Origin: Candidatus Uhrbacteria bacterium | GTDB lineage: Bacteria > Patescibacteriota > Patescibacteriia > UBA9934 > GWF2-40-263 | Assembly: GCA_016844925.1 (NCBI GenBank) | Contig: JAERTI010000043.1 | Span: 2,386 to 66,385, forward strand | Reading direction: 5' to 3' | DNA: 64,000 bases | In this document: piece after piece, positions 23,058 through 44,647 of the stretch | Layout of the letters: every line of letters starts with the position of its first letter | Position numbering within the stretch: the stretch's first letter is position 1 | Notes under the pieces: generated by a model | What the model was told of the DNA's origin: nothing | What the model saw: only the letters and a program-made list of their open reading frames with translations | Databases searched by the model: none | Translations under genes and position numbers: made by a program

Positions 23058-23092
23058 GTGACCATCCTTTCCGCGACAATTGTCGCAAAGAC

Positions 23093-24110: not shown

Positions 24111-24125
24111 TGCAGCTAGTTCATA

Positions 24126-24380
24126 CTAGTTGCTGACGTCCACCATGTTGGCGTTGAGGATCAGCAGACCGTGCGGCGTCTTGATGTGCAGGCGATCGCC
24201 CAGCTGCTTGCCCTGCAACGTGCCGGTCGCCAACTCGTAGGAGCCGGAGTTGCGCGTGAAGATCCCCTTCACGATGCACTCGGCCGTGTTCAAGGAGCGC
24301 CCCTCACCCTGAGGAACGCAGCAGACGACGCGGTGAAGCAAAGGCTTGGGAAAGGAGATCAGCGACGGAAGGGTGTTCAT
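24126..24380 (-). CDS. hypothetical small protein
   Basis: 84-aa ORF with a competing plus-strand frame. Weak call. Confidence 0.3.
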   Translation of the reverse strand: MNTLPSLISFPKPLLHRVVCCVPQGEGRSLNTAECIVKGIFTRNSGSYELATGTLQGKQLGDRLHIKTPHGLLILNANMVDVSN

Positions 24381-24454
24381 TTCTTATCCATTCTGCAGCG
24401 AGACATGCTGCGCCTGACTTGGGTCCCGACCCAGATCAGGTTAAACAGGAGGAT

Positions 24455-24575
24455 CATTCCCCCCATCTCCCATCTCGACCGGAGTCGAAGTGGGGGATGG
24501 AGTCCCGAGCGTATGCTGTGAGACCCCGTTTCGAAATATTCGATAGGTCTTTGAGCGTGACGCTCGGGTAGGAGG
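24455..24575 (-). repeat. cassette-boundary element
   Basis: ccccatctcccatctcgaccggagtcgaagtgggggatggagtcccgagcg. Confidence 0.65.
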
Positions 24576-25055
24576 TTAGTGGGGGGCGATCGGATTGTGG
24601 CGGCGGTGCACTCTGGTTACGCGACACTCCCACTGCTTGGCGCAGTTTCGGCTTGAGCGCTTCCAGGATCGTCCGCGGCGCATGCGTCCGAGTTCCTTTT
24701 CGGCGATTTTTCCGAAGTAGCCGGGGTTGTACGAGTCCTTGCGGATTTTGTGTGCGGCCCTGGTGGGACCGTAGGACGAGAGGCTCGACTCGTCAGCGGT
24801 CTCCAACAGGTGTCGGAGAGCTTCCTTCTCCTCGATCAAGCTTTTTTCAGCTTGGTCGACGAAGTCGCTGTACACGTCGTAGCCCTCGAGAGAATCCCAG
24901 TCTTCCTCGATCCAGCTATCTTCCTCGATGTGGGAGGCGTAAAGCTCCTCCCAGAGCTCCTCGTTGTTGAAAGGTTCCTGTTCTTGTTCGAGTTTGGCCA
25001 CAAGGGCCCCCAGATTCTCCGACTGGTAGCAGTCAGAGTGTTGATTGGATGTCAC
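24576..25055 (-). CDS. acidic Trp-rich protein, family C (GPTRAAHKIRKDSYNPGYFGK)
   Basis: GTG start abutting the element. Motif homologous to the C-terminus of 20801 and 40785. Confidence 0.45.
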   Translation of the reverse strand: MTSNQHSDCYQSENLGALVAKLEQEQEPFNNEELWEELYASHIEEDSWIEEDWDSLEGYDVYSDFVDQAEKSLIEEKEALRHLLETADESSLSSYGPTRAAHKIRKDSYNPGYFGKIAEKELGRMRRGRSWKRSSRNCAKQWECRVTRVHRRHNPIAPH

Positions 25056-25180
25056 TCCATCTCTCGTCTCGACCGGAGTCGAGGTGGGGGATGGAGTCCC
25101 GAGCGCGTAAGGGCTCTAGAGACTCCTTTGCCGATTGTTATACCTCGGCGAGTCTCGAGTGATGCTCGGGAAGTGGTGTG
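25056..25180 (-). repeat. cassette-boundary element
   Basis: ctccatctctcgtctcgaccggagtcgaggtgggggatggagtcccgagcgcg followed by the ctctagagactcc extension. Confidence 0.7.
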
Positions 25181-25185
25181 ACGCT

Positions 25186-25776
25186 TCAGTTTCTCGCGAA
25201 GATGAAGCGGGTCGTAGGCGGGAATCGGTGCTCTTTGCTTAGGCGCTGAACGCTGACACAATCTCCACGTGATGTCGTTCTGTGCAGAACGTACAGGTCG
25301 TTCCAGATCGCATCTGTGTGGAAGAACATCGAGAGGAAGAGTTCGTCTTCTATAATGGCTGTGCTCAGCAGCAGGGCGGGTGCCTCCTCCTGTGTGCAGA
25401 CGTTCAGGCCATGCTTGTAGGCCGCACCGATGATTTCATTGAGGGTCGCGCCTTCGTGGCTGAAACCAAGATCTTCGACGGAGACCAGGACCAGTTCGAC
25501 TCGCTTCATGTACCCCAGATCGTGGATCCGCAACTTCTCGATGAACTCCTTGCTCATCCCGACTCCAGCAATTCGGAGTGCGTAGATGTAGTTCATGGCG
25601 GAGTAGAATCGTCCGAGCCAAACCGTTCGCCAGGTGGGGAACTTCGCGGGCCAAGGGTTCTGCCTCTGGACGAACTTCTCCAGGGCCTTCACCCAGAGTT
25701 CTCTTTCGGTCCCGATGAACGTCCAGAGTACTTGCATTACCACAGCAGTTCGTTGGAGCAGTTGTGTGTCGCCCAT
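25186..25776 (-). CDS. hypothetical protein, family A
   Basis: AAAGGAGA RBS. Paralog of 11109..11738. Confidence 0.45.
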   Translation of the reverse strand: MGDTQLLQRTAVVMQVLWTFIGTERELWVKALEKFVQRQNPWPAKFPTWRTVWLGRFYSAMNYIYALRIAGVGMSKEFIEKLRIHDLGYMKRVELVLVSVEDLGFSHEGATLNEIIGAAYKHGLNVCTQEEAPALLLSTAIIEDELFLSMFFHTDAIWNDLYVLHRTTSRGDCVSVQRLSKEHRFPPTTRFIFARN

Positions 25777-25779
25777 GGG

Positions 25780-26005
25780 GGCAATCTCCTTTTCTTCAGC
25801 TAATCCAGCTGACAGGTCCGGTCGCGCCGGAGCGGTTGTGGTGAACAATTGGAGAATGATTCCTCCATCTCACCGTCCGTCTTAGACGGCAGGTGAGATG
25901 GAGTCCCGAATCGCGTATTCGATTCAGGGGTTCCCGTCTCAGGTGAATCAGAACTGGTCTTTGTATTAACCACGATCCTGATTCCGTCCCTGGAGGGGCA
26001 TAAAA
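25780..26005 (-). repeat. cassette-boundary element (leader module, hairpin 1, CCCGAATCG hairpin 2, and the AT-rich GAATCAGAACTGG module)
   Basis: ggttgtggtgaacaattggagaatgattcctccatctcaccgtccgtcttagacggcaggtgagatggagtcccgaatcgcgtattcgattcagg. Confidence 0.7.
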
Positions 26006-26009
26006 GGTG

Positions 26010-26462
26010 CTAGAGGGTCATAGAGCTCATGACTACCACGAGTCCCAGTGTGTAGAACTGGAAGATGCTCAGAACAAGTGCGGCAAGAGCAAGTCGTATA
26101 AATCCTTGTGGATTCGTCAATTCAAGAGCCGCGACGGATCCAGACATCACCAGCGCCAGGCAACCAGCCAAGTAGCACAGGGCGAACATGAGCCAGTTCG
26201 GGTCAGACAGTGGGCCAACTTCCCGGAGAAAGATGACGCTTGAAATGCTCAGGCTCACACTCAGGGCAAGCCAGATCAGGCGCTTCCACAGTCGTGGGGT
26301 CGCAAGGGTCTCGAATAGGGCTTCGAGCTTCTGGTCCAGGCTGATGCCGAACCTTTGTTGGAAAATGGGTTCCAGGGTCGGAACAAAGATCCAACAGAAA
26401 GCGTAGAGGACTCCCAGGCAGTTTTGCGTGCTCCGGATCATCCAGTCCTTGAGGCGCTTCAT
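26010..26462 (-). CDS. membrane protein, translationally coupled (ATGA overlap) to the upstream family-B gene
   Basis: Start MKRLKDWMIR overlaps the stop of 26459..27022. 4 TM helices. Confidence 0.45.
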   Translation of the reverse strand: MKRLKDWMIRSTQNCLGVLYAFCWIFVPTLEPIFQQRFGISLDQKLEALFETLATPRLWKRLIWLALSVSLSISSVIFLREVGPLSDPNWLMFALCYLAGCLALVMSGSVAALELTNPQGFIRLALAALVLSIFQFYTLGLVVVMSSMTL

Positions 26463-27022
26463 CGATTCGCTCCTTCCTTGAGCATCACCATGTAGCAGCT
26501 GTCGGACAGGCGGTTCCTGAACGCGTGAGCGTCTGTATCCCACCAGGGTCCGTTTCGGTACATGTAGCGGAGGCACTTGTCTGGGCCAGAGTAGGGTTGA
26601 ATTGTCCCAGGGAAGAAGATCTTCCGTGGCTTGCCCTGTTCGTCGTGCTTCCAAGCTTCGGGGATCAGCTTCCCTCGCTTAGTCAGCGCATTCATCACCC
26701 CTGCGTGTACGGCCCGGTCCATGGGCATCACTGCCATGACATCTGCAAGCTTGTACCCCACACCAAAGTGAGCGATAGGGACAAGCTCAATGTCGTCAGC
26801 ATTCCATGTGAAGGTTCCTGTTCCGTTGTGAAAGTCGATGCCGCCGTAGGGAGGCTCGGTTTCCAGGATCACGGTTGGCTTGCGCTGCGGAACACCGTCG
26901 ATGACGTTCTGAAGCCCTTGGAGAACATGATCCAAGTCGAGCTTTCCCTTGCGCGTCTTGCGCAAGATCTCTTCGGCAAGGAGGGCGACTCGTCCGTACT
27001 GCGCGTTGTCGATACGCATCAC
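26459..27022 (-). CDS. hypothetical protein, family B (RKGKLDLD ... LIPEAWK ... KIFFPGTI)
   Basis: Close paralog of 33193..33765. Confidence 0.5.
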   Translation of the reverse strand: MMRIDNAQYGRVALLAEEILRKTRKGKLDLDHVLQGLQNVIDGVPQRKPTVILETEPPYGGIDFHNGTGTFTWNADDIELVPIAHFGVGYKLADVMAVMPMDRAVHAGVMNALTKRGKLIPEAWKHDEQGKPRKIFFPGTIQPYSGPDKCLRYMYRNGPWWDTDAHAFRNRLSDSCYMVMLKEGANR

Positions 27023-27099
27023 GTTCCTTTCTGCGGCAGAGAGGCCGCTCCATCCTGGTCCAATCCAGGATGGGGTTGAGTTGAAGGTACGTTTGAAGG

Positions 27100-27210
27100 C
27101 TCATTCCTCCATCTCCCGTCTCGACCGGAGTCGAAACAGAGGATGGAGTCCCGAGATGGATCTCGGGTCGTGTCCACCAGGTCGTTTGTGCCTGGTGGGT
27201 TTAAGAGGGG
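27100..27210 (-). repeat. cassette-boundary element
   Basis: ctccatctcccgtctcgaccggagtcgaaacagaggatggagtcccgagatggatctcggg. Confidence 0.7.
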
Positions 27211-27486
27211 CTAGGTGAGCAAGACTCGAGTTTCCTCGATGGCCGCCTGCGCGTTCGGGCCCAGGGTCCGCAGGGTGAGCACCTTGTCGTACAGGTGCGG
27301 CTGCAGGTTTCCGGGGTGGAAAAGGTGCCAGGAACCAGAGAGATCCTGGGCCAGCAGGCCGTGGATCAGCTCAGGGTTGTCGATGCAGTCGATCCGGTAA
27401 GCACTGCACGCGTTGACCTGATCCGCTCGGTCCCAGTCGATCAGCTCCAGTTGCTGGACGGAAATCTCGGTAAAGGCGATGTTCAT
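27211..27486 (-). CDS. hypothetical small protein
   Basis: Start MNIAFTEISV follows the conserved leader gcagagaggatcgaagcATG. Confidence 0.4.
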   Translation of the reverse strand: MNIAFTEISVQQLELIDWDRADQVNACSAYRIDCIDNPELIHGLLAQDLSGSWHLFHPGNLQPHLYDKVLTLRTLGPNAQAAIEETRVLLT

Positions 27487-27489
27487 GCT

Positions 27490-27720
27490 TCGATCCTCTC
27501 TGCAGCTTGACTCACTGCATCCACCACTGAGTTCCAACTCAGGGTGAGTCTCTTGCGAAGGTTCATTCCTCCATCTTTAGCGAGAGTGCGCTAGGTCTGT
27601 GCTCCTAACGTCTCTCGCTACAGATGGAGTCCCGAACATACAAGCGCCGGCCACTCCATTCTGACGAGGTGTCAGTGGGGCCCGGTGTTGTTCGGGGTTT
27701 AGGTACTCACCTGATGTCTA
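27490..27720 (-). repeat. cassette-boundary element (leader module plus hairpin 1 variant CTCCATCTTTAGCGAGAG...CTCTCGCTACAGATGGAG)
   Basis: Direct read. The same hairpin-1 variant occurs at 30450 and 33840. Confidence 0.7.
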
Positions 27721-27771
27721 TCAGGTACTACGAGGAGGTGCTCGTCGCAGTAGTCGTAGTCGGCGTAGCTG

Positions 27772-28299
27772 TCAGCTGCCGATGATTCCGTTGATGACCT
27801 TGAAGGTCTTGTGGAACTCGCGGATATCTGCTCGTGCACTCAGGATCCAGTCTCCGAGCTCGTAGATGAACCAGAAGGTCCAGTAGAACAGGACGGCATG
27901 GGTCATCACGCTGGGCGAGGAGGTGCGTGTGATCAGCTCCGCTACGAAGATGAATGCTCCGCTGTAGAGCGTGGCACGGTGCATACGTGGCGCGTTCTTC
28001 ATGGACAGTCGCTGGTACCACTCGTCCTTTCTGTTGGGGAGATCGAGGGGGGTGTTCCGAGCCACCTGGATCATCTCCAGGATCACGAAGGTCAGGATGC
28101 CGTTGTCCTTCCGTGGGTGTTCGAGGATGGCACGTTCTCCCGCGGTCAGACTCAGCTTCTCCTCCATCGTCTCGCGGACAGTGGAGATGTTTTGTGAAAG
28201 TCGGGGCCCCTTCAAGAGCCGACGACCCGCAAGAAACATGGCGTGAATTGCCGTGAGAGTGATCAGCACACCAGGTGCCACCTGCAAGAGGGATTCCAT
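27772..28299 (-). CDS. membrane protein
   Basis: GAAAGG RBS and start MESLLQVAPGV. Multiple TM helices. Confidence 0.45.
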   Translation of the reverse strand: MESLLQVAPGVLITLTAIHAMFLAGRRLLKGPRLSQNISTVRETMEEKLSLTAGERAILEHPRKDNGILTFVILEMIQVARNTPLDLPNRKDEWYQRLSMKNAPRMHRATLYSGAFIFVAELITRTSSPSVMTHAVLFYWTFWFIYELGDWILSARADIREFHKTFKVINGIIGS

Positions 28300-28329
28300 G
28301 TAGGAAACCTTTCTCTGTTGGGTTGGTTT

Positions 28330-28525
28330 ACTACCTTCCCAAATCAATTGGGTTAGACAGAGCTCATCTCTGTCCCTTCCCATCTGCCTACACAAGCGGT
28401 ACTCATGTATGCAGATCGGATCCCGAATCGCGTATTCGATTCAGGAAGTCGTACCCACAGCCGCTGTTCGTGATTCGCCTCTGACCGAGTTGGTCAATGA
28501 ACGAACGGGAACGGAAGTGGGGTGG
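28330..28525 (-). repeat. cassette-boundary element (variant hairpin CCCATCTGCCTACAC...GCAGATCGGATCCCGA)
   Basis: Direct read. Paralogous to the element at 29395-29535. Confidence 0.65.
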
Positions 28526-28535
28526 TAAGGAAGGG

Positions 28536-29318
28536 CTACAGGTGCTTGGCGACCCGCGCTGCTTCTTCCTTGGTGACCTTCAAGTGGACGGTGTCGCCCT
28601 CGGTCACAATTTCCAATCGAGTCAGTTCTGCTCGATTCTGCCTCATGCTCGCGGTGAGCTTGCTGACCTGGGCCCAAGTCACCTCGATCAGGAAGTGTCC
28701 AGAGAAGCGGTTGCTCCACATGTCCTGGAACTCCCTCGTGATGAACGCTGGAGTTTGTTCAGGGATGTCCATCATGGGCTTGCTCAAGCCAAGAGGCTCG
28801 AACTTTGGGTTGGGGATCTTGTCAATTTTCTTCTCTAGAGCCGACTTGGGCTGTGCTCCAACCAGCGTCATCGAGCCGGTCAGGGTGCGGACGCCTCGGC
28901 TTCGCTTCTCGACCAGGAGAATGACGCTCATCAACGTGTCATCCCAGAGGGTCAGGCTGATCCCTTCAAATGCCAGCGCGCCGTTTTGCATGCGCTTGAA
29001 GCCTTTCATGTGCTCAAAGGTCAGAACGCCCTTTGCCCACAAGTGGGTTGCCTCCTTTGCGGAGACAGAGACAAACTGCACATGTTCAAGAAGGCCGAGT
29101 CTCTGGTCTTCTTGCAAGGTGAGCTCGATGCTTTTGAGCGTCGATTGAACATCGTCGCTGTCCAGTACTGCCCACTCAGGTCCGTCCTTGTACGTGAAGG
29201 ACGCACGGGGACTCATCTGTGGTGGGTTGTCCGTGCGCTTGATCCATTGGTCGAAGATGACCAGTTCATCGTGATGTGCCTTGAGCACGTGTTCGCATTC
29301 AATGTAGCTTTGTGCCAC
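28536..29318 (-). CDS. hypothetical protein
   Basis: 260-aa ORF with no recognisable domain. Confidence 0.45.
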   Translation of the reverse strand: MAQSYIECEHVLKAHHDELVIFDQWIKRTDNPPQMSPRASFTYKDGPEWAVLDSDDVQSTLKSIELTLQEDQRLGLLEHVQFVSVSAKEATHLWAKGVLTFEHMKGFKRMQNGALAFEGISLTLWDDTLMSVILLVEKRSRGVRTLTGSMTLVGAQPKSALEKKIDKIPNPKFEPLGLSKPMMDIPEQTPAFITREFQDMWSNRFSGHFLIEVTWAQVSKLTASMRQNRAELTRLEIVTEGDTVHLKVTKEEAARVAKHL

Positions 29319-29394
29319 GTTGATCCTTTTCCTGGTCTGACCAGGTCTGACAAAGGCGCGATCGCCTTTTCCGTTTGGGTCAGGTGGAGTGAAT

Positions 29395-29535
29395 CTCCGC
29401 CTCTTCCCATCTGCCTACACGAGAGGTCTCATGTGTGCAGATTGGATCCCGAATCGCGTAGTCGATTCAGGAAGTTCTTTCCCACAACCGCTGCATCTGT
29501 AAGGACAGACACTTAAACGGGGGTGGGGTGCGAGG
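29395..29535 (-). repeat. cassette-boundary element (variant)
   Basis: cccatctgcctacacgagaggtctcatgtgtgcagattggatcccgaatcgcgtagtcgattcagg. Confidence 0.65.
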
Positions 29536-29539
29536 GGGC

Positions 29540-29818
29540 TCAGGTGAGCGTCATTCCGTAGCCCAGGGCTATCAGCGGGAGGACCAGGAAGAAGATCAGC
29601 TCGACGGCGAACATCGTGAGACGCTCACTCGGGCTTCCTTTCGAGAATTCCCAGTACTTGTTGAAAGCCACCAGGGACGCTACCAACGCCACCCAGAGAC
29701 CGAGGTCTGCCGGCACGAGCAGGATCAACGGGATCATGTTCAGGCTGTACAAGTAGCCCATCAGGACTTGGGAGGCAGCGAAAGCTACGGCCCCCAGGAA
29801 GAAGAGAATTTTCTCCAT
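29540..29818 (-). CDS. small membrane protein (3 TM)
   Basis: GAAAGGGAAACA RBS followed by ATG (MEKILFF). Confidence 0.4.
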   Translation of the reverse strand: MEKILFFLGAVAFAASQVLMGYLYSLNMIPLILLVPADLGLWVALVASLVAFNKYWEFSKGSPSERLTMFAVELIFFLVLPLIALGYGMTLT

Positions 29819-29995
29819 TGTTTCCCTTTCACGTTCTTGGGTTGTAAAGGTGGTGAACGCATACCACCGATCCGTACGCGAGTTGTTCGCGTCCGGGTCA
29901 GTGTCCTCAAGCGTTGCGTGTGCTTGAGGTCGTTTCCCACAATCGTTGCTCTGAATGTCCAGAGCCCTGACGAGTGTGGGGTGCATGGTCGCTGT

Positions 29996-30367
29996 CTAGT
30001 CAGCGTCCGTCAGCTTGGGGGTCACACCCATGGCGCTCAGGTGGATGCAAGCGACATCGACCGCCGAACGAACATCCAGGATGCTCTGGTGAAAGGTCTT
30101 CACCCAGGAGAGTTCGCCAGTGAGCTCCCAACCGATCTCTTCGGCCTGGAAGAGCATCCACTGCAAGGAGGTATCCTCCAGCAGCAACACATACTCAGTG
30201 TCCTCGACCGTGTAAGCCTCACGGGCGCTGTAAACAGCCCCCGTGTCGAGCGCCTTGCCATCCTCCGTCGTCGCGTTCTGTGCGTAGCGCTTGAGCGTCA
30301 GGTTCTCGGGGTGGGGCATCCACAGGAAGTAGAAGACGTCCTCCTGAAGCTTCATGATCGTTGCCAT
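29996..30367 (-). CDS. hypothetical protein
   Basis: Conserved leader gcagagaggaacaagATG. No hairpin 1 between this gene and 29540..29818, so the two may form one cassette. Confidence 0.4.
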   Translation of the reverse strand: MATIMKLQEDVFYFLWMPHPENLTLKRYAQNATTEDGKALDTGAVYSAREAYTVEDTEYVLLLEDTSLQWMLFQAEEIGWELTGELSWVKTFHQSILDVRSAVDVACIHLSAMGVTPKLTDAD

Positions 30368-30369
30368 CT

Positions 30370-30640
30370 TGTTCCTCTCTGCGGCTTGACTCACCGCGTC
30401 CACACGTGGGTTCCATCCCCGTGTGGGGTTGTTGCGAAGGTTCACTCCTCCATCTTTGACGAGAGCTCTCAGGTCTGTGCTCCTGAGATTCTCGTCACAG
30501 ATGGAGTCCCGAGCTGCGTATGCGCTCTAGAGACTCCTTGCTATCCGGTTATACCCGGCGAGTCTCGAGCTTGCCTGCCGGTAGGGAGGCGGGTGCTCGG
30601 GAATGAGCTTTAGAAAAGCTCAAGTTTTTCCGAAGGCTTG
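30370..30640 (-). repeat. cassette-boundary element (leader, hairpin 1 variant, and extensions)
   Basis: ctctgcggcttgactcaccgcgtccacacgtggg...ctccatctttgacgagagctctcaggtctgtgctcctgagattctcgtcacagatggagtcccgag. Confidence 0.7.
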
Positions 30641-30642
30641 TT

Positions 30643-31386
30643 TTAGACAGAGGCCTCCTTGAACGTCTTGGGTCTACGCCAGCGCAGCAATTTGAGCAGT
30701 CGTTCCTGCGAGATGTAGGTGGTGTCCCAGGCGGTTGTGAAGGCATCTCCGGTACACTTGCCGCTGAGCAGATGTCCTTGAGGGCATCGATACGTCCACT
30801 TCAGACACTTGCTACGAAGAGCCTTTCTGGCTTCCAGTGCGCGCAGCAGCTGGGCACGTCGGTCAGGACACGAGTTGTCCCAGGTGTTTAGCAGCGGAGG
30901 CAAGAAGCGCCCTACTTCAAGAATGGTTCCGGAGATTTTCACTCTACGCAGATTCGCTCCGTCCAGATCTACTCTGTCGAGTCTTGCTTCACGCAGGTCA
31001 GATTCAGTCAGCTGAGCTCCGTACAGGTCCGCCCTTGTCAGGTTTGCTCTGCGCAATGTCGCTTCGCGCAAGTTGGCCATGCGCAGCATTGCTCTCATCA
31101 TGTCTGCACCACGCAAGTCTGCACCACGTAGTTTTGCAGAGAACATTATTGCCTCGATTAGATCCGCTTCACGTAGGTCTGCTCCGCACAGGTCCGTCCA
31201 GGACATGTCCGTTTCAGTCAGATCTGCTTTGGCCAGACAAGCTCCGCTCAGATCCGCACAGCTCAGGTCTGTCCCACTCAGGTCCAGCTGGATTCCTGGA
31301 TGTGCTTCTCGCCAGGTATCGATGGCTTTCTTGCCACCAATCGATCTGATCTGTGCAACCAGATCCTGTTTGTCTTGTTCGGTCAT
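30643..31386 (-). CDS. pentapeptide-repeat protein (subtype 1; C-terminus ISQERLLKLLRWRRPKTFKEASV)
   Basis: Paralog of 11957..12511. Confidence 0.7.
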   Translation of the reverse strand: MTEQDKQDLVAQIRSIGGKKAIDTWREAHPGIQLDLSGTDLSCADLSGACLAKADLTETDMSWTDLCGADLREADLIEAIMFSAKLRGADLRGADMMRAMLRMANLREATLRRANLTRADLYGAQLTESDLREARLDRVDLDGANLRRVKISGTILEVGRFLPPLLNTWDNSCPDRRAQLLRALEARKALRSKCLKWTYRCPQGHLLSGKCTGDAFTTAWDTTYISQERLLKLLRWRRPKTFKEASV

Positions 31387-31389
31387 GAC

Positions 31390-31610
31390 GACCCTTCTCC
31401 AGTAGAGGCTGGGATAGAGAATTGCATCGAGTCATACTCGACGGTTTCAAGGTGCTAGAAAATTTGGAGGGTTACTCCATCTCACTTCCCGTCGGTGACG
31501 GTGAGTCAGATGGAGTCCCGAGCGTTGCACTGGGACCCGTGAGGTCCGAGCGTTGCGCTCAGGATCGTCCTCCCCCCGGGCGAATTCCCGAGGGGAGGGG
31601 TTCGGAGTAC
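31390..31610 (-). repeat. cassette-boundary element plus the CCTCCCCCCGGGCGAATTCCCGAGGGGAGG 3' hairpin
   Basis: ctccatctcacttcccgtcggtgacggtgagtcagatggagtcccgagcg. Confidence 0.7.
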
Positions 31611-32860
31611 TACTCCGAGAGGTGGTAGAACTGCAGCAGGTCGTGAGGCTGCATGTTCACGTCCAGCTCCTGACCGGTCTCGTACAAGGCCGGGTTCACG
31701 ACCTCTCGGAGGTACACGGCAACCTGCACCGTCTCGCCGCTGGTGTTGGGCAGCAGCTGGCAGGCGATGCGGGTGGTGTAGGAGAAGGTGTTCTCCCAGA
31801 CCATGGGGGTCAGCATCCAGAACGGGAGCGTGAGCGTGTCGCCGACGGGGGTCAGCGTTTCCACCTCCTCGAGGCCGAACATGTTGTCCGAACCCTCCTG
31901 GGTCTCGAAGACCGTGCAGTGCTCGATGAACGGCGTCGGGTCCAGGGGGAGCGGGCTGTCCAAGCTGGTGACCAGGATGGTCCACTCGAGCGTCTGCGCC
32001 GTCATGGTGCCTTCATCGCTCCAGTTCAGCGTGTCCGCCGTCAGGACCGGGTTGGGCGTTCCATTGGCGGGATCGAGGTAGTACTCCTCGTCCGCGTACC
32101 AGTCGAACAGGCCCTGGCTGGGCAGCAGGCTGTTGGAGTAGGTGTGCTGCACCGGTCCGACGTCCCAGGGCTCGATGGGCTCTTCCTCGGCTCCGATCAG
32201 CGCGGCGACCCGCGGGGGGTTGCCGTTGGTCTCGGTGACGACCGACTGGACCGAACGGCCCAGCTGGTCGAAGACGTTGGCCACCGCCGGGATCGGCAGA
32301 TCCGCCATGATGCCGACCTGCTGTTCCGGAACGGTCTCCGTGAGCTGGCAGACGATGTCGGCGTTGCGGATGCCTTCTTCGCCCACGCTCTGACCCAAGA
32401 TGGCGACCAGGTTCCCTTCGTCCGTCAAGGGCGAGGGGTCCGAGTAGTCGACGATCTGCGGCCAGCCGCGGAGCTGGCAGCTCTGGACGTACTGTCTGAT
32501 CAGCGCGCCGTCGCCGAACTCGTAGAGCTCGTCGCCGTCGGTGTCGATGCCGATGCTGATCTGGATCGTCATCAGGTTGAGCTGCTGCCCGTAGGGGCTG
32601 TGGAACGTGACCGAGCCGAGGATGACCTCCTGGTCCGGCTGGGCGAGGAACGGCTGCGCCGCGTGGAAGGCGGTGGTGAAGCCGATCTCCAGCAGCTGGT
32701 CGGAGACTTCGGGGACCTCCTCGGGCTCGTTCGCCGGCTGCTCGGTCGGCTCGTCGCAGTCCTCGTGGACGTCGACGTACACGTCGTTGTAGATGTGGGT
32801 ATCGCCGAGGGTCTCGGGCAGGCAACCGGTGAGGGTGAACAGGGAGATCACGAAGATCAA
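31610..32860 (-). CDS. putative secreted lipoprotein (lipobox LTGC)
   Basis: N-terminus MIFVISLFTLTGC followed by an acidic 400-aa domain. Confidence 0.5.
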   Translation of the reverse strand: MIFVISLFTLTGCLPETLGDTHIYNDVYVDVHEDCDEPTEQPANEPEEVPEVSDQLLEIGFTTAFHAAQPFLAQPDQEVILGSVTFHSPYGQQLNLMTIQISIGIDTDGDELYEFGDGALIRQYVQSCQLRGWPQIVDYSDPSPLTDEGNLVAILGQSVGEEGIRNADIVCQLTETVPEQQVGIMADLPIPAVANVFDQLGRSVQSVVTETNGNPPRVAALIGAEEEPIEPWDVGPVQHTYSNSLLPSQGLFDWYADEEYYLDPANGTPNPVLTADTLNWSDEGTMTAQTLEWTILVTSLDSPLPLDPTPFIEHCTVFETQEGSDNMFGLEEVETLTPVGDTLTLPFWMLTPMVWENTFSYTTRIACQLLPNTSGETVQVAVYLREVVNPALYETGQELDVNMQPHDLLQFYHLSE

Positions 32861-32884
32861 GTTGAAAGTACGAATAGGTCGTTC

Positions 32885-33150
32885 TCCTTTTCCAGCTAAC
32901 CCAGCTGGCGGGTGCGGCCCTCAGGCCACGGGTTCAAGATGCAACTCCATCTGACTTTCCGTCATTGCGAGCGGAGCGAAGCAATCTCTATTATCGGAGA
33001 TTGCCACGCCTGGCGTTGCCAGGCTCGCAATGACGGAAAGTCAGATGGAGTCCCGAATCGCGTATTCGATTCAGGGGGTACCCGTCTCAGGTGAATCAGA
33101 ACTGGTCTTTGTATTAACCACGATCCTGATTCCGTCCCTGGAGGGGGTAT
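32885..33150 (-). repeat. cassette-boundary element whose hairpin 1 is a 28-bp perfect stem (CTCCATCTGACTTTCCGTCATTGCGAGC ... GCTCGCAATGACGGAAAGTCAGATGGAG)
   Basis: Direct read of 32945-33050. Followed by the CCCGAATCG hairpin and the AT-rich module. Confidence 0.8.
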
Positions 33151-33192
33151 GAAAGGTGCTAGAGCGTCATGGAGATGACGCTGGAGCTTAGA

Positions 33193-33765
33193 TTAGTCGA
33201 CCTTGCGGACGGCCATGTACGTACAGTTGCCCAACGGAGCATCCTCTGGGAAGTTGTGGGTGTTCCACCATCGTGGTCCTTCCCAGTAGATGTACATCAT
33301 GTTCTTGAATCCGCTGGGGCACTCAAAGAGGGTGCCGGGGAAGATGATCTTTCTCGTGTTGCCGAAGGTGTCGAACTTCCAGGCCTCTGGGATCAGTTCC
33401 GTATTGCTGATCAGGTAATCCATGACAGCGGCGTCAACACCGCGGGTCGTTGAGAATTCCTCCACGACCTCCTTCAAACGACGACGATCGGTTCCGGAGG
33501 GGACGTGAACGAGCTCAATTTGAGTTGGGTCCCAAGTGAATGGATCATCTCGGTGGTGTTCAAGCACCGTGTATCCGTTCGGGGTCTTGGGGGGGAGGTT
33601 CGGGATCAGTTCCGTCTGAGCGGGCTGATCATCACCTTGAAGGATGGACGTAAGTCCGCGGAAGGCTTGATCAAGATCGATCTTCCCCTTCCTCACCTTC
33701 CTGAAAAGCTTAGTCTGGAGCATGGCGAGCTTGCCAAGTTGCATTTCGTCAGGACGTTGAGTCAT
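33193..33765 (-). CDS. hypothetical protein, family B
   Basis: Leader gcagaaaggacctgtcATG. Motifs RKGKIDLD, LIPEAWK and KIIFPGTL. Confidence 0.5.
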   Translation of the reverse strand: MTQRPDEMQLGKLAMLQTKLFRKVRKGKIDLDQAFRGLTSILQGDDQPAQTELIPNLPPKTPNGYTVLEHHRDDPFTWDPTQIELVHVPSGTDRRRLKEVVEEFSTTRGVDAAVMDYLISNTELIPEAWKFDTFGNTRKIIFPGTLFECPSGFKNMMYIYWEGPRWWNTHNFPEDAPLGNCTYMAVRKVD

Positions 33766-33769
33766 GACA

Positions 33770-33985
33770 GGTCCTTTCTGCGGTATGACGTACCGCGTCC
33801 ACCTCTGATCTTCAGGGTGGGGTTATTACGGAGGCTGATTCCTCCATCTTTGACGAGAGTTCTCAGGTCTGTGCTCCTAAGAGTCTCGTCACAGATGGAG
33901 TCCCGAGCTGCGTATGCGCTCTAGAGACTCCTTCTATCCGGTTATACCCGGCGAGTCTCGAGCGATGCTCGGGATGTGGTGTGAT
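33770..33985 (-). repeat. cassette-boundary element
   Basis: ctccatctttgacgagagttctcaggtctgtgctcctaagagtctcgtcacagatggagtcccgagctgcg. Confidence 0.7.
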
Positions 33986-34007
33986 TAGAGCTCACTCCAG
34001 GCTGCCC

Positions 34008-34514
34008 TTAGCAGGGCTGGATCCGACTCCTGTTGTTCTTGACCCTGTTCCTGGGGTTGATCTGGTAGCCGCAGGCGATGGCGGCCAGCAGGATCGCGGG
34101 GTCGAGGCCCTTGCAGGTTTCCAGGCCCTTGCAGGTGGCCCACTCAACAGGACTCTGGTTGACCTTTGCGTCGGTGAAATCTGCGCCGGAGAAATCCGCT
34201 CCGAAGATTTCCGCATCGAGCAGATTGGCACCGCACAGGGTCGCACAAAACATATTGGTCTTATGGAGAGTTGCCGCAGTGAAGTCTGCACCGGTGGCGT
34301 CGACGCTATTCAGGGCTGCTTTGTTCAGACAGGCATCAGAGAGATTGGTACCGATCAGGTTCGCCCCCGAAAGGTCAGACTTCTCCAGGAGCGTATCGGA
34401 GACGTCCTCACCCGACAGGTTGATCTTCTTGTCAGGGTTTGCCTCCTTCCAGTTCTCCACAACGAATTGGCCATGAGATCCATGCAGGCTTTCTGCCAGT
34501 TGCTTGTCGCCCAT
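34008..34514 (-). CDS. pentapeptide-repeat protein (subtype 2)
   Basis: NWKEANPDKKINL N-terminal motif and WATCKGLETCKGL C-terminal motif. Confidence 0.65.
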   Translation of the reverse strand: MGDKQLAESLHGSHGQFVVENWKEANPDKKINLSGEDVSDTLLEKSDLSGANLIGTNLSDACLNKAALNSVDATGADFTAATLHKTNMFCATLCGANLLDAEIFGADFSGADFTDAKVNQSPVEWATCKGLETCKGLDPAILLAAIACGYQINPRNRVKNNRSRIQPC

Positions 34515-34519
34515 TTGGG

Positions 34520-34725
34520 CAACCTCCTTTTCTCCAGCTTCACCCAGCTGATGGGTCCGGCTGTTGCCGGAGGGGTTGTGGTGAACAATTGGAGGCTGAT
34601 TCCTCCATCTCCTGTCTCGACAGGTGTCGAAACAGAGGATGGAGTCCCGAGCTGCGTATTCGCTCTAGAGACTCCTTTGCCAGTCTTTTTCCCTGGCGGG
34701 GTCTCGAGCGGATGCTCGGGAAGTG
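34520..34725 (-). repeat. cassette-boundary element
   Basis: cacccagctgatgggtccgg...gaacaattggaggctgattcctccatctcctgtctcgacaggtgtcgaaacagaggatggagtcccgagctgcg. Confidence 0.7.
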
Positions 34726-34729
34726 GTGG

Positions 34730-35095
34730 CTACATGTTGAGGGCGCGCAAGACGCACTTGCTCAAGATGGCTATCGAGAAGTCGAGGTCTTGGAGATGTG
34801 TCTTGCGGAACTTGGCGTAGCGCAGCACGGTTCTTTTGATGTTGCACCCCCGCAGGTCCGCGCCTGCGAAGTTCGCGCTCGTCAAGATTGCGTTGGAGAG
34901 GTTGGCTCCCCGCAGGTCCGCGCCCGTGAAGTTGGCTCCGATCAAGATGAGTCCGCTCAGATCCACGTTCCTGAGGTCTGCGCAGGTCAAGTTGAGGTTT
35001 CGTTCTCCGTGTTCGCTCTTCCAGCAGTGGAGACCCAAGATGCGCTGAGCTCGATCTTCTCGCTTCAAGATCTCGACCAGATCCATATTTGCCAT
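34730..35095 (-). CDS. pentapeptide-repeat protein (short)
   Basis: ORF track; tandem A(D/N)LxGxxL repeats. Confidence 0.6.
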   Translation of the reverse strand: MANMDLVEILKREDRAQRILGLHCWKSEHGERNLNLTCADLRNVDLSGLILIGANFTGADLRGANLSNAILTSANFAGADLRGCNIKRTVLRYAKFRKTHLQDLDFSIAILSKCVLRALNM

Positions 35096-35099
35096 GTGA

Positions 35100-35305
35100 C
35101 TTCTCCTTTTCTCCAGCTTTACCCAGCTGACGGGTCCGGCAGCGCCGGAAGGGTTGTTGTGAACGATTGGAGAATGATTCCTCCATCTCCCGTCTCGACA
35201 GGTGTCGAAACAGAGGATGGAGTCCCGAGCTGCGTATTCGCTCTAGAGACTCCTTTGCCAGTCTTTTTCCCTGGCGGGGTCTCGAGCGGATGCTCGGGAA
35301 GTGGG
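35100..35305 (-). repeat. cassette-boundary element
   Basis: Near-duplicate of the element at 34520-34725. Confidence 0.7.
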
Positions 35306-35307
35306 GG

Positions 35308-35685
35308 CTATCGCTTGTAGCCCATTTCGATGACGGCATCCATGAAGTGCCTCGGGGAGGGGAGCCAGTCTGCCCAGTTCAATCTTCGGCAGTGTACCCA
35401 CTGGGAGAAGTTGTCGTACTTGACGTTCCTCAGGTCCGCGTCGTGGAAGTCCACTCCGTACAGGTTCGCTCCGCGCAGGTCGGCGAAGCGCAGCCGGGCG
35501 TGGCAGAGGACGGCGTCTTCGAGGTTCGCTCCGCGCAGGTCGGCCCAGCGCAGGTTCGCTCCCTCGAGGTTCATGCCGCTCAGGTCCGCGTCTCGCAGGT
35601 CGATTTGCCCGAGCGCCCTGAAGGCCAGGCTTCGTTCCCAGTCGTCCTCGATTTTGAGGATTTCGAGGATTCGTTCGATGGTCAT
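35308..35685 (-). CDS. pentapeptide-repeat protein (first cassette of array 1 in transcription order)
   Basis: ORF track; ADLRGANL repeats. Confidence 0.6.
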   Translation of the reverse strand: MTIERILEILKIEDDWERSLAFRALGQIDLRDADLSGMNLEGANLRWADLRGANLEDAVLCHARLRFADLRGANLYGVDFHDADLRNVKYDNFSQWVHCRRLNWADWLPSPRHFMDAVIEMGYKR

Positions 35686-35689
35686 GTGA

Positions 35690-35760
35690 GCAACCTCCTT
35701 TTAAACAGCTTGACCCAGCTGACGGGTCCGGCGTGGCCGGAGAGGTGATGCGGCTAGGCC
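35690..35760 (-). repeat. truncated leader module at the array 1 boundary (ACCCAGCTGACGGGTCCGG... with no following hairpin 1)
   Basis: Conserved leader sequence that diverges at about 35740 into the core terminator region. Confidence 0.5.
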
Positions 35761-35764: not shown

Positions 35765-35830
35765 TGAGGTGTGTTGCGCAAAAAAGGCGCACCAGAGACA
35801 CGGTTATTACCGAATCTCTGATGCGCCTTT
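35765..35830. terminator. terminator hairpin (aaaaaaggcgcacc...ggtgcgccttttt)
   Basis: Direct read. Confidence 0.5.
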
Positions 35831-35964
35831 TTCTGTAAAAGCGAATCTATGGTCATCTCGGGGCGGTTAGCCTATTAGGGCGTGCACAGATTCCGCCTAG
35901 AGATGTTTAATTGTACGTTGCAATATACTCCATTTTTGGGGTTTTGTCAAGGTATTATGACAAA

Positions 35965-39916: not shown

Positions 39917-39919
39917 GCA

Positions 39920-40070
39920 CAACGGCCCGAGCGGCCTGCGAGTCTCGCAGCGCTAGCTCGGGACTCCATAGAAAACTCTGTGAGGTGCACTCTCCAGCAT
40001 CGCACGGGGATTTCTACGGAGTTTCGACTTCGGACAACAGCAAATCCCACAATGCTGGGTAAAGGATTGG
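39920..40070 (+). repeat. cassette-boundary element, array 2 orientation (CTCGGGACTCCAT...)
   Basis: gagtctcgcagcgctagctcgggactccatagaaaactctgtgaggtgcactctccagcatcgcacgggg. Confidence 0.7.
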
Positions 40071-40073
40071 TCA

Positions 40074-40544
40074 GTGACCAGTCATTCGTTGGAAAGAGCA
40101 ATTCGTTTGGGTCCTGAGACCCTTCGTAAGTATCGGGACACGAATCCCGACGATTGTGCTCTCTGGGGAGCGGACTTTAGCGGGTTGAATTTGGCAGGTG
40201 TTGATCTGTCGGGTATCTCCTGCTGGAACGTGAACTTCTCAGGTGCCAACCTTGCAGGGGCGAACCTCTCTCATGGCTCCTTCTGGAACTCGAACTTCTC
40301 GGGAGCAGACCTCGCGGGAGCGAACCTGTCCAACATGTCGTGTAACAGAGCGTGCTTTTTCGAGGCAAACCTCGCGGGAGCGAACTTCTCTTATACCTCC
40401 TGTTGGGATATGTGCTTTTTCGAGGCCAACCTCGCAGGAGCGAACTTCTCCCACAGTTCCTTCTGGGATCCGAACTTCTCAGGGGCCAACCTCGCAGGGG
40501 CGAGCCTTGGCGGGATGTGGCGTATTGACACGCGTGGAGATTAG
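40074..40544 (+). CDS. pentapeptide-repeat protein
   Basis: GTG start. NFSGANLAGANLS repeats. Confidence 0.65.
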   Translation: MTSHSLERAIRLGPETLRKYRDTNPDDCALWGADFSGLNLAGVDLSGISCWNVNFSGANLAGANLSHGSFWNSNFSGADLAGANLSNMSCNRACFFEANLAGANFSYTSCWDMCFFEANLAGANFSHSSFWDPNFSGANLAGASLGGMWRIDTRGD

Positions 40545-40549
40545 TTCAC

Positions 40550-40790
40550 CCAGAGGTTCGCAGCCTTGAGTTAAGGGTCGCGAGCAAAGACTAAGAGTGG
40601 GTTGAGAGGCAACTCCGAAGAAAACAAACGACGCAAACCCGAGCTTTGCGGCCGGGATCCACCCAGGGTCTCGCAGCACTAGCTCGGGACTCCATAGAAA
40701 ATTCTGTGAGATGCACTCTCCAGCATCGCACGGGGGTTTCTACGGAGTTCTGAACTCTGACAACCAAACCCCAACCACAGGAAGGTGCGA
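40550..40790 (+). repeat. cassette-boundary element (near-duplicate of the element at 39920-40070)
   Basis: ggtctcgcagcactagctcgggactccatagaaaattctgtgagatgcactctccagcatcgcacggggg. Confidence 0.7.
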
Positions 40791-41777
40791 GTGTTCGCAT
40801 GCTACGCCGAGGATCTGGGCCTGACCGGGCTCGTGGACCTCTGGGAGTACCGCTATCTGGCGCAGGAGGAGTCGCCGGAGAAGCTGGAGATGATGTGGGA
40901 CGAGGATCAGCTTCACCGCGAAGCGCTGGGTCTGTGCAACAAGTACAGCCTGGACGAGGAGTGGTCGGAGTCCGACCTGGTGCAGATGGTCTACAACCCG
41001 TCCTGGTACACCTCGTCCTTCGGGGAGTACTGGAGCGAGTGCTCTGACAGTGCGCGCGACCGCTTCTGCCTGATGATGCGCGAGGCGGCCCTGATCGCCC
41101 TGCAGATGCGCAAGGGGATCTACATGGATCCCGTGGACATCGAGCTGAGCGACTGGGACCACGACCTGGAGTACTACTGCGCGAGCAAGGCTGCCGCCAT
41201 GGTGCGCCGGGCTCAGCGGCACTTCACCAAGATCCAGGACCCTGGCAATCGCGAGTCGCGCCGGGCGAGTCGTCTGCACACCGAGGCGGCGCGTGGTCCC
41301 CAGTGGGCCAAGCACAAGCCGGGCTTCAACCCCGTCGAGCACTGCCGTGCTGGCCAGCTCGAGACCGAGCTGTGGACCGAGCAGAACCTGCAGGACGATG
41401 CTCAGGAGCTGATGGCTCGTGACGAGGAAGATGTCGAGTGTGAGCGCTGCGAGCGCGAGTACCGCGAGGAGCTGCGCGAGTTCGAATGGGAGCTGGAGAT
41501 GCTCTTGTACGAGAGCTACTACTGCGACGACCCTTGTTCGTGCTTGTACTGCATGGAGGATCAGGAACTGGACTGGGAGCAGGACGACTGCTGGGATGAT
41601 GAGCCTGGTGACTACGGTCTTCTGGACGTGACCTTCATCGGTCTGAACTCCAGCGGTGGACGTCGCCGGAAGATGGCGCGCGGTCCCCAGTGGGCCAAGC
41701 ACATCCCGGGCTTCAACCCCCGCAAGCCCGAGCGCCACAAGTTCGACATTCGCAAGGTAGCAACCTTCGCCGCCTGA
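40785..41777 (+). CDS. acidic Trp/Tyr-rich protein, family C (ARGPQWAKHxPGFNP motif occurs twice)
   Basis: C-terminus RGPQWAKHIPGFNPRKPERHKFDIRKVATFAA is homologous to the C-terminus of 20801..22381. Confidence 0.5.
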   Translation: MRVFACYAEDLGLTGLVDLWEYRYLAQEESPEKLEMMWDEDQLHREALGLCNKYSLDEEWSESDLVQMVYNPSWYTSSFGEYWSECSDSARDRFCLMMREAALIALQMRKGIYMDPVDIELSDWDHDLEYYCASKAAAMVRRAQRHFTKIQDPGNRESRRASRLHTEAARGPQWAKHKPGFNPVEHCRAGQLETELWTEQNLQDDAQELMARDEEDVECERCEREYREELREFEWELEMLLYESYYCDDPCSCLYCMEDQELDWEQDDCWDDEPGDYGLLDVTFIGLNSSGGRRRKMARGPQWAKHIPGFNPRKPERHKFDIRKVATFAA

Positions 41778-41779
41778 AC

Positions 41780-41910
41780 ACGGGCACATCGCCCAACGAC
41801 CCGAGTGTGAGCTCGAGATTCGCTGACAAGCCGTCAGTACGGAGTCTCGCGCTTAACACTCGGGACTCCACACGACGATTCGTTAACAGAACGAGTGGTC
41901 ATGAGGAGGA
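41780..41910 (+). repeat. cassette-boundary element
   Basis: gtctcgcgcttaacactcgggactccacacgacg. Confidence 0.6.
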
Positions 41911-41920
41911 AGGAGAAGAG

Positions 41921-42271
41921 ATGCTCTTGCTGTTTTTGATCCTGTCGGCTCCGGTGCCGGGGGTCGTGGCTGCTCAGGTAGTCACCATTCCCGACGAGCC
42001 CGGACCGGTCAGGCCCGTTCCCGACGAGCCCAAGCGTCTGGATCCGCCCATCGCAGCGGTTCCGCCTGAGGAACTGGTCTTCGAGCTGGGTCGTCGAGAG
42101 GTGCTGATTCGCGAGGAGGAGTTCATCATGCCGGTGCCCCCCAAGGGTTCCCGCGTCGAGAAGGCCGCCAACGCGAGGATGTACAAGGACTGGCGCAAGC
42201 CCGCGGGAGTTCCGCAGGCGCACCGCCGACCCCACCACAAGACCAGGCGCACCCGCGTCCGGTTTCACTAG
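41921..42271 (+). CDS. secreted proline-rich protein (signal peptide)
   Basis: GGAGGAAGGAGAAGAG RBS. N-terminus MLLLFLILSAPVPGVVAAQ. Confidence 0.4.
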   Translation: MLLLFLILSAPVPGVVAAQVVTIPDEPGPVRPVPDEPKRLDPPIAAVPPEELVFELGRREVLIREEEFIMPVPPKGSRVEKAANARMYKDWRKPAGVPQAHRRPHHKTRRTRVRFH

Positions 42272-42294
42272 CGCAACGCGCATACTGGAGGAAG

Positions 42295-42519: not shown

Positions 42520-42524
42520 AAGGC

Positions 42525-42680: not shown

Positions 42681-42682
42681 GA

Positions 42683-43231: not shown

Positions 43232-43234
43232 ACA

Positions 43235-44645: not shown

Positions 44646-44647
44646 TG

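Follow-up and report, generated by a model that had tools for sequence, protein, structure and literature searches.

To our knowledge, integrons are the sole well-understood system in which gene arrays are built via hairpin sites that are recognised by their structure and degenerate in sequence, and the generality of such cassette assembly is a question on which the element described here bears. The window analysed, a 64-kb stretch from a Parcubacteria-group bacterium with a small genome, belonging to the candidate phyla radiation (CPR), consists for more than half of its length of cassette-like arrays punctuated in a different way, by a double hairpin. Near its middle lies a long perfect inverted repeat, and the original prediction held that structure rather than sequence is conserved in it and that the hairpin is recognised structurally, as integron integrases recognise folded attC sites. 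Here we ask what this hairpin is, to what kind of element it belongs and what that element may do. Our results point to a hairpin, hereafter HP1 (hairpin 1), that is one half of a composite double hairpin (a 3′ domain, one A and HP1), which would delimit mobile cassettes in two chromosomal arrays.

The repeat search returned arms at 32944-32972 and 33023-33051, each of 29 nt, 100% complementary and separated by 50 nt, which is the same feature, offset by one base pair, as the 28-bp perfect repeat with a 52-nt loop described originally. The predicted minimum free energy of 32945-33050 is -76.9 kcal/mol on the sense (-) strand and -77.6 kcal/mol on the + strand, compared with -29 to -31 kcal/mol for dinucleotide shuffles (z = -13.2 and -14.5, respectively, with 0/200 shuffles equal). 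The 50-nt loop folds into two small hairpins, which makes the whole of HP1 (32945..33050, - strand) a three-way junction atop a 29-bp perfect stem. A single A (33051) joins it to a minimal 3′ domain hairpin (33052..33075, - strand; sense CCUGAAUCG-aauac-GCGAUUCGGG), which is predicted to be more stable on the sense than on the antisense strand (-11.9 vs -7.1 kcal/mol); together with the 5′ foot of HP1, this yields the conserved core GAUUCGGGA|CUCCAUC.

The same arrangement recurs along the arrays and nowhere else in the window. We found about 43 copies of HP1, all within the 36 kb of arrays at 10.6-35.7 kb and 39.9-50.6 kb, vs none in the ~28 kb of core sequence, and HP1 was not found in the core parts of the related loci L156 and L157 either. 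There is one copy per gene junction, placed between consecutive open reading frames (ORFs) and in constant orientation relative to the genes. The flanking motif GATGGAGTCCCGA (the element motif is also written as GCTCGGGACTCCATC) occurs 38 times in the window with up to two mismatches vs 2.85 expected, a number reached by 0/100 shuffles, and its true copies lie on the + strand at 10.9-35.3 kb and on the - strand at 39.9-45.6 kb. On the coding strand, the order is stop codon, optional extra hairpins, 3′ domain, one A, HP1, GAA and the 5′ untranslated region (UTR) of the next gene. The 3′ domain is a simple or branched hairpin of 19-94 nt, closed by CCCGAGC/GCUCGGG and carrying a conserved ..ACGC.. 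on its 3′ side; its closing stem covaries (CCCGAGC/GCTCGGG, CCCGAAC/GTTCGGG, CCTGAATCG/CGATTCGGG). HP1 consists of CUCCAUC, a variable interior and GAUGGAG, and the GAA behind it is followed by a linker often containing CCUCC, a variable hairpin, a CAGCUGG..AGCUGG hairpin, AAAAGGAGG, 6-7 nt and the AUG. Invariance extends furthest in the 15-nt core that separates the two hairpins, GCUCGGGA|CUCCAUC (GCTCGGGA|CTCCATC in DNA). The modules, that is, the HP1 types, the 3′ domain types and the optional extra hairpins, combine freely, resulting in mosaic elements.

To assess whether pairing is maintained, 64 distinct copies of HP1 from the window and from the related loci L120, L123, L126, L128, L130, L147, L153, L156, L157 and L056 were aligned without gaps, as 18 nt per arm joined via an artificial linker. 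Across the 18 basal pairs, 89.7% of the cells are paired, compared with 65.5 ± 0.9% with shuffled partners (0/500) and 39-46% with slid partners; 266 cells have changed on both sides vs 85.6 in the control, and the covariation score is 0.624 vs 0.173 for the shuffles and 0.12-0.18 for the slid arms. As the copies are related, the shuffle count must not be read as a probability; sliding the arms preserves this relatedness and gives an equally clear result. Pairs 1-7 are near-invariant, with pair 6 being U-A or C-G and pair 7 C-G, A-U or U-A, and the feet CTCCATC and GATGGAG are found in at least 60 of the 64 copies. Pairs 8-18 are variable yet 80-100% paired, pairs 10 and 15-18 nearly always and with up to four pair types, and pair 8 is unpaired in 27/64 copies; the total length of HP1 ranges from 40 to 120 nt. 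These data support selection for pairing in HP1 and conservation of structure in the family. The claim that structure and not sequence is conserved is therefore correct for the HP1 family, and the pair counts given here, with the G-U counts given below, confirm in numbers the accompanying remark that pairing persists in the copies, often through G-U.

The interiors belong to several types. Type I (TCGAC-N4-GTCGA, 42 nt) accounts for the majority of copies, type II (GACnnnCCGTC-N3-GACGGnnnGTC, 41 nt) is found at 10966, 14556, 25863 and 31475, and type IV (GCTAGTAGCTGAT.., ~58-64 nt) at 15839 and in a copy near 14883. Type III (59-77 nt; four copies in the window, others in L156, L130 and L365) has long covarying stems that carry an invariant apical loop, GGAG(C/T)ACAGACC. 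In L123, L056 and L156 there are further recurrent palindromes such as GCGCACCCTAAAGGGTGCGGCTACC.. or GGCAGGCTGAAGCCAGCC. Both of the alternative interiors quoted originally do exist, TCCCGTCTCGACCGGAGTCGAAACAGGGGA being type I and TTTGACGAGAG...CTCTCGTCACA type III. Their reading as compensatory variants stands in part: double compensatory changes are clear within the types and in the shared basal pairs, whereas types I-IV are unrelated palindrome families, meaning that clear covariation goes along with some interiors that are unrelated insertions. Stem interiors are free to vary provided that they pair, and even accept foreign palindromes.

The reported copy is a case of the latter. Alignment places a 68-nt guest palindrome (ATTGCGAGC ... 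GCTCGCAAT, 32964..33031, - strand), containing the two small hairpins, where type II HP1 has its 3-nt loop, and the 29-bp stem divides into the 19-bp type II stem, one junction pair at a former loop position and the 9-bp basal stem of the guest. On this alignment, the reported copy is a type II HP1 that gained the guest in its loop, with the stem extended and the conserved foot undisturbed; compensatory drift as the origin of the 29-bp stem is not borne out. L157 has a homologous guest (9522-9602) within one of its HP1 copies (9501-9620), oriented relative to the array as in the window. The core of the guest, CATTGCGAGCGNAGCGAAGCAATC, has 23 fixed bases and was detected in at least 120 unrelated viral contigs of IMG/VR with a GC content of 34-72%, and the guest loci that were fetched (L245-L364) contain 146 copies, either as single units or, often, as inverted pairs forming stems of ~30 bp; at one of them, L259, the architecture is the same as in the window. 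A permissive Rfam search with a typical guest returned no family and the literature search no paper, and the palindrome family is thus one conserved across hosts of 34-72% GC for which we found no description. The guest contains GCGAAGC, which we take to be an unusually stable DNA mini-hairpin.

The availability of related loci allowed us to compare the arrays between strains. The interval between the rodZ-like gene and recA holds an array of 25 kb in the window, 8.5 kb in L365 (whose core is ~91-94% identical to the window at the nucleotide level), 7 kb in L130, 6 kb in L157 and 2.4 kb in L156, and there is no array in L123 and L153 (RecA 88% and 83% identical at the amino acid level), where recA abuts the rodZ-like gene; RecA identity among the loci compared ranges from 83 to 100%. 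In L120, a 96%-identical strain, the terminal cassettes differ from those of the window. The L365 array is the same in six independent assemblies (L365-L370) and is therefore not an assembly artefact. In all nine junction comparisons that we made, identity starts or stops on a conserved hairpin foot, and in none does it do so within an ORF or a stem interior. Five breakpoints are located in the core ..TCGGGACTCCATC (the second junction of L156/L157 and four window/L365 junctions), three at the 3′ foot of HP1, (A)GATGGAG or GTGGAG, and the remaining one coincides with the 5′ foot of the terminal 3′ domain. At one window/L365 junction the HP1 interior moves with the downstream cassette; elsewhere it apparently moves with the upstream one, the paralogues at 26459 and 33193 both having a type II HP1 and the structured 3′ UTR module that we call type C (33076..33192, - strand, aligning with a copy at 25910-26000). 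The ends of the arrays were also compared: at the head of the L365 array, the chromosomal mini-hairpin CCTGAGctagtaaCTCGGGA is directly followed by HP1, and at the tail, in the window and in L120, GCTCGGGA is directly followed by the chromosomal U-tract, both of which fit an insertion at GGGA|. Furthermore, L123 carries a 594-nt unit, composed of a 103-aa ORF and the element, in 3-4 tandem copies of 99.5-99.7% identity (11277-13224), which indicates a recent amplification of this cassette.

We tentatively favour, at somewhat below an even chance, a non-canonical, integron-like cassette system that is site-specific and depends on the hairpins. We do so because the conserved parts of the element are the stem feet and the core between the hairpins, where all strain breakpoints fall, and because the same element frames unrelated ORFs and the array ends resemble insertions at GGGA|. 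The folded element, most likely in the form of sense-strand single-stranded DNA (ssDNA), would be both the recognition and the crossover site of a recombinase encoded elsewhere in the genome, and cassettes would be gained, lost and exchanged by this enzyme in a manner akin to integron attC sites and to clusters of attC sites lacking integron integrases (CALINs), with a different site architecture. If a recombinase does act on the element, this would represent a second, independent solution to cassette capture and offer a handle on how accessory proteins, including many pentapeptide-repeat proteins, diversify in episymbiotic CPR bacteria.

Several observations weigh against this interpretation. 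Pfam scans revealed no tyrosine, serine or HUH recombinase among the ~75 ORFs of the 64-kb window, and no recombinase or transposase in ~60 kb of flanks of L123, L126, L130, L153, L156, L157 and L365. The breakpoints map to three conserved segments and not to a single crossover point, and they are resolvable only to stretches of shared identity, for which microhomology slippage or homologous recombination would look similar. The cassettes common to the window and L365 are collinear, a pattern that differential losses from a once larger, ancestral array could produce as well, and among the loci compared no cassette was found at two different loci. Finally, the excess of G-U pairs on the sense strand, described next, suits a role in RNA at least as well as one in ssDNA.

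In the unfiltered list, the sense strand gives the more stable HP1 in 52 copies and the antisense strand in 22, with 6 tied, and in relatives the sense bias is near-universal. Outside position 8, the sense strand has 94 G-U pairs vs 29 A-C mismatches, the latter being G-U pairs on the other strand. This bias favours RNA or sense-strand ssDNA, and a strand-biased C-to-T mutation could contribute to it. It is one argument for an RNA-level role, the main and a serious rival of the cassette system, which we consider possible, albeit less probable: the arrays would be transcribed as polycistronic mRNAs in which the double hairpin and the structured 5′ UTR serve as intercistronic punctuation, be it for processing by RNase III or by an endoribonuclease specific to hairpins, for protection of cistron ends or for translation control. 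Cassette turnover would then be a by-product of homologous, microhomology-mediated or transformation-mediated exchange between repeated sequences. Such a role would also fit the invariant type III loop (GGAG(C/U)ACAGACC in RNA) on its covarying stems, the potential of the GGAGG in the 3′ foot of HP1 to pair alternatively with the downstream CCUCC, the presence of a single visible promoter, at the array head, and the lack of a recombinase in the searches above. Indeed, the entire stop-to-start region behaves as a conserved unit, with 94% identity between 34524-34732 and 35103-35310 where the neighbouring ORFs are different. On the other side of the balance, the 3′ domain shows no strand bias (31 sense vs 27 antisense), and position 8 of HP1 is reversed: A-C outnumbers G-U there by 29 to 11, and in 24 copies the sense strand has a C.A mismatch where the opposite strand would form a U.G pair. 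Deamination of C to T on the non-template strand could also account for the U.G excess itself. An RNA role leaves unexplained why the element is absent from every core operon and why unrelated ORFs are placed between identical elements, and the recombination that it invokes is difficult to reconcile with the need of RecA-dependent recombination for a minimal homology, 15 nt of identity being too short for efficient crossover. Phage T7-type intercistronic RNase III hairpins are likewise long hairpins between cistrons with a preference for folding on the sense strand, whereas the element here has feet and a core conserved in sequence and is linked to the presence or absence of genes. If it does act as RNA, it would constitute a new and large family of intercistronic structured RNAs.

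An unlikely alternative is that these are selfish palindromes in a fast-evolving island, of the type of repetitive extragenic palindromes (REP), bacterial interspersed mosaic elements (BIME) or miniature inverted-repeat transposable elements, mobilised in trans by a RAYT or an IS200/IS605-type HUH transposase and without any role in cassettes. The freely combining mosaic modules and the foreign palindromes nested in HP1 would be expected of such repeats, as would the finding that in L156 and L157 the 3′ domain and the HP1 interior differ between flanking ORFs that are the same. REP and BIME are likewise extragenic mosaic palindromes with stems that tolerate G-U. Unlike these, the elements here are not dispersed, being confined to the two arrays and missing from the other intergenic regions sampled, occur strictly once per junction and in one orientation relative to the genes, have no GTAG-type 5′ tetranucleotide, and come without a RAYT or TnpA gene in the loci examined or a Y1_Tnp match in our scans. 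IS200/IS605 and their non-autonomous derivatives, palindrome-associated transposable elements (PATE), are similar in that each unit is bounded by hairpins, the strands are asymmetric, the orientation is fixed and the junction directly follows a short conserved sequence (GGGA|), features that together would allow tandem insertion. In IS608-type ends, the cleavage sites lie 10-19 nt from the hairpin; here, in contrast, the hairpin feet are 0-1 nt from the junction, no TnpA (Y1) was found, ordinary ORFs are carried and only two loci are occupied.

How far, then, does the analogy with attC hold? An attC site is an imperfect palindrome of ~57-141 nt whose inverted 7-bp ends are conserved (R″ = RYYYAAC and R′ = GTTRRRY) and whose variable centre keeps pairing; it folds specifically from the bottom strand and carries conserved extrahelical bases. 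The context here is integron-like, with co-oriented, mostly promoterless arrays of small ORFs, a strain-variable content and, as in CALINs, no adjacent integrase; HP1 itself provides each cassette with one imperfect palindrome whose 7-bp inverted ends are conserved and whose centre varies but stays paired, and its size agrees with that of attC. Most of the features that define attC are not found, however. The feet CTCCATC/GATGGAG carry the triplets ATC/GAT and not AAC/GTT, and the arms are in ungapped register, without a conserved bulge and with only the frequent mismatch at pair 8. It is the sense (top) strand that is more stable. The breakpoints give a mixed picture, five lying at the 5′ foot or core of HP1, three at its 3′ foot, where attC crossover takes place, and one at the 5′ foot of the 3′ domain. 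Two hairpins with a 15-nt core in between make up the site, the arrays vary along their whole length and the host belongs to the CPR. A complete integron would have an adjacent intI tyrosine recombinase with attI and a Pc promoter; a promoter is present at the array head, and the ~75 window ORFs and the flanks in relatives gave no Phage_integrase match. Thus, of the structural recognition proposed originally, selection on pairing and the integron-like context hold up, the attC-specific part fails on feet, strand and integrase and is not favoured by most of the breakpoints, and beyond its logic the analogy does not hold. That the arrays are a canonical integron or CALIN with divergent attC sites and an IntI encoded elsewhere on the chromosome is accordingly a very improbable reading: it accounts for the promoterless co-oriented cassettes behind a head promoter and for the one palindrome of 40-120 nt per cassette, and is contradicted by the missing R″/R′ consensus and conserved extrahelical bases, by the folding strand and the mostly 5′-foot breakpoints, by variation at head, middle and tail where head insertion alone is expected, and by the lack of a nearby intI and of any report of CPR integrons in our literature search.

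Non-integron cassette arrays served by Xer-like recombinases are known from Bacteroidales (rAID-1) and Acinetobacter (pdif modules), and FtsK activates Xer recombination in other bacteria. The arrays here resemble them in having small orphan genes between conserved intergenic repeats, with site-specific recombination as the presumed means of shuffling, and they flank ftsK. A dif-like site is 28 bp long, with two 11-bp arms and a 6-8-bp centre; unlike dif or pdif, the inverted feet here are 27-92 nt apart, the hairpins are two and long, and no recombinase gene is adjacent. In an intrinsic terminator, a GC-rich hairpin runs directly into a U-tract; HP1 is followed by GAA..., and AUUUUCUUU stands only behind the hairpin of the terminal 3′ domain in the left array (10618-10601). 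The element therefore matches no known recombination site or RNA family among those tested (attC, dif, REP, terminator and Rfam). The more specific proposal of an undescribed CPR cassette-integration system, with a double-hairpin site folded as sense ssDNA, GCTCGGGA|CTCCATC as the crossover core, a recombinase from a family not yet linked to cassette capture, and HP1 apices serving as landing pads for guest palindromes found across bacteria, is conceivable, and we would regard it as rather improbable in all its parts together.

At the gathering threshold, Rfam recognised only two tRNAs in the whole window, and a permissive search over 32.8-36.1 kb (E-value ≤5) gave only tRNAs and chance-level matches, with nothing overlapping 32945-33190. 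A scan of the genome collection with the 14-mer GATGGAGTCCCGAG yielded, among the matches listed, L056 as the only true relative, the rest being mostly chance single matches. In IMG/VR viral contigs, a single match to the HP1 pattern was due to chance, and the core 14-mer matched 83 times, always singly and never accompanied by features of the element, which is therefore not phage-borne in IMG/VR. Literature searches returned no report of integrons in CPR bacteria or Parcubacteria and no publication describing the element. We also considered the large proteins at the array borders as novel recombinases (51083-52678 in the window, 7152-8969 in L126, 9203-10963 in L153 and 2073-3725 in L156); they show no mutual homology and no Pfam match, and the idea was rejected. 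The same applies to a tRNA-like nature of the 3′ domain, suggested by its 7-bp closing stem, the single following A and a length of ~75 nt: there is no T-loop and no match to a tRNA model.

The chromosomal setting was derived from a crude ORF map and Pfam scans. Positions 1-10.5 kb contain housekeeping genes, among them a lysS-like gene, a 77-aa gene and recA (9219-10247). The left array (10596..35700, - strand), with ~31 small ORFs, all on the - strand, and ~30 HP1 elements, extends from the side of a small RNA (sRNA)-like gene, the rodZ-like gene and ftsK to the 77-aa gene and recA, and terminates with the hairpin CCCGAGCCCTCGCTCGGG (10618-10601) followed by A-UUUU. An HTH_25/rodZ-like gene and ftsK (36.0-39.5 kb) separate it from the right array (39917..50640, + strand), whose ~18 small ORFs (39.4-50.6 kb) are all on the + strand and are accompanied by ~13 HP1-type elements. 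Beyond it follow a 531-aa ORF without annotation, rpoB, rpoC, yebC and two tRNAs, so that both arrays are located between recA and rpoB. The elements of the distal right array (45546-50238, + strand) have a variant hairpin, CCCATCT..(GATCAAnnnGATCGAG)..AGATGGG, and no CCCGAGC domain can be recognised in them, which suggests a second sub-family.

The 50 array ORFs were grouped into 30 families, comprising 14 pentapeptide-repeat proteins, a family with four members, three small families and 25 singletons. Apart from the pentapeptide-repeat proteins, none has a Pfam or NCBIfam match. These 14 cassettes (within 11957-48438; for example 15110-15769, 16006-16584, 30643-31386 and 40074-40544) encode short proteins with a common N-terminal motif, ..W(R/K)xxNPGxxL(N/D)L.., and are the source of the dominant 15-nt periodic repeats. 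The ORF upstream of the reported hairpin (33193..33765, - strand, 190 aa), for which no Pfam or NCBIfam family was matched, belongs to the family of four together with 26459-27022, 16784-17794 and 19554-20345. On the downstream side, the 5′ UTR (32861..32944, - strand) contains the recurrent CAGCUGG..AGCUGG hairpin and the Shine-Dalgarno sequence AAAAGGAG, and precedes an ORF of 416 aa with the lipobox LTGC (31610..32860, - strand), a homologue of which is the first array cassette in L365. The real start of this lipoprotein ORF is probably upstream of the listed TTG (32861-32880, - strand): AAAAGGAG stands 7 nt ahead of an ATT codon, from which translation would yield a basic n-region, IRTFNLIFV..LTGC, and this ATT may be a non-canonical start codon.

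The sequestering of a Shine-Dalgarno sequence by HP1 (GGAGG in GAUGGAGGAA) was rejected as a general mechanism because most true start codons are located 20-160 nt downstream and have a AAAGGAGG to themselves, and because reading from the foot's in-frame AUG mostly ends at a stop codon within 15 codons.

At the head of the left array, the sole promoter seen (sigma-70-like, TTGACA-17-TATATT) precedes the sRNA-like gene of ~120 nt with its own strong terminator (35785..35955, - strand; fold z -5.6). This gene is kept, in one copy per locus and with a covarying first stem, in L156 (7170-7330), L157 (3890-4050), L130 (1480-1640) and L365 (1510-1700), and is absent where the array is absent (L123 and L153). 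Its conserved parts are the loop CUGUGCACGCCCU(U/A)AUAGGCU and a single-stranded AGAUUCG(C/U)UUUUACAGAA, and it has no Rfam match. The sequence GCACAGA of the type III loop (GUACAGA in relatives) is complementary over 7 nt, maybe by chance, to UCUGUGC in the loop of the sRNA (type III loops at 33874, 30480, 27602 and 22473; sRNA position 35889), which concerns only four of the ~43 HP1 copies. Pairing between sRNA and element was set aside as a weak lead, given that the other top matches fall within pentapeptide coding sequence. At the opposite end, upstream of the 65-77-aa gene that precedes recA, the inverted repeat TGTCAGACA-ATTGTTTGACAAA-TGTCTGACA (10560-10592, - strand) is conserved at the same place in L120, L123, L130, L156, L157 and L365, forming a fixed chromosomal boundary of the left array; it looks like an operator.

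Opposite-strand gene calls in public annotations of L156 and L157 might be taken for reversed cassettes. Codon-position GC identifies them as antisense shadow ORFs (7940-8704 in L156; 4628-5434, 6858-7583 and 8637-9392 in L157), with a GC1 of ~0.8 and a GC3 of ~0.6 vs a sense GC3 of 0.75-0.91, and existing annotations of such arrays are therefore unreliable. In unrelated low-GC metagenome contigs (L122, L133, L134, L140, L142 and L148-L152; GC 0.41-0.50), we observed clusters of GGGACTCCATC and GATGGAGTCCC in direct and inverted order, 10-25 nt apart, an 11-mer identical to the element core plus the HP1 foot; it may be a protein-binding site common to another repeat family or an artefact of selecting contigs with the search pattern. 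Lastly, the acidic, Glu/Asp-rich low-complexity stretches in the C-terminus and linker of FtsK (36702-36940 and 38433-38590, - strand) give rise to trinucleotide-like repeats.

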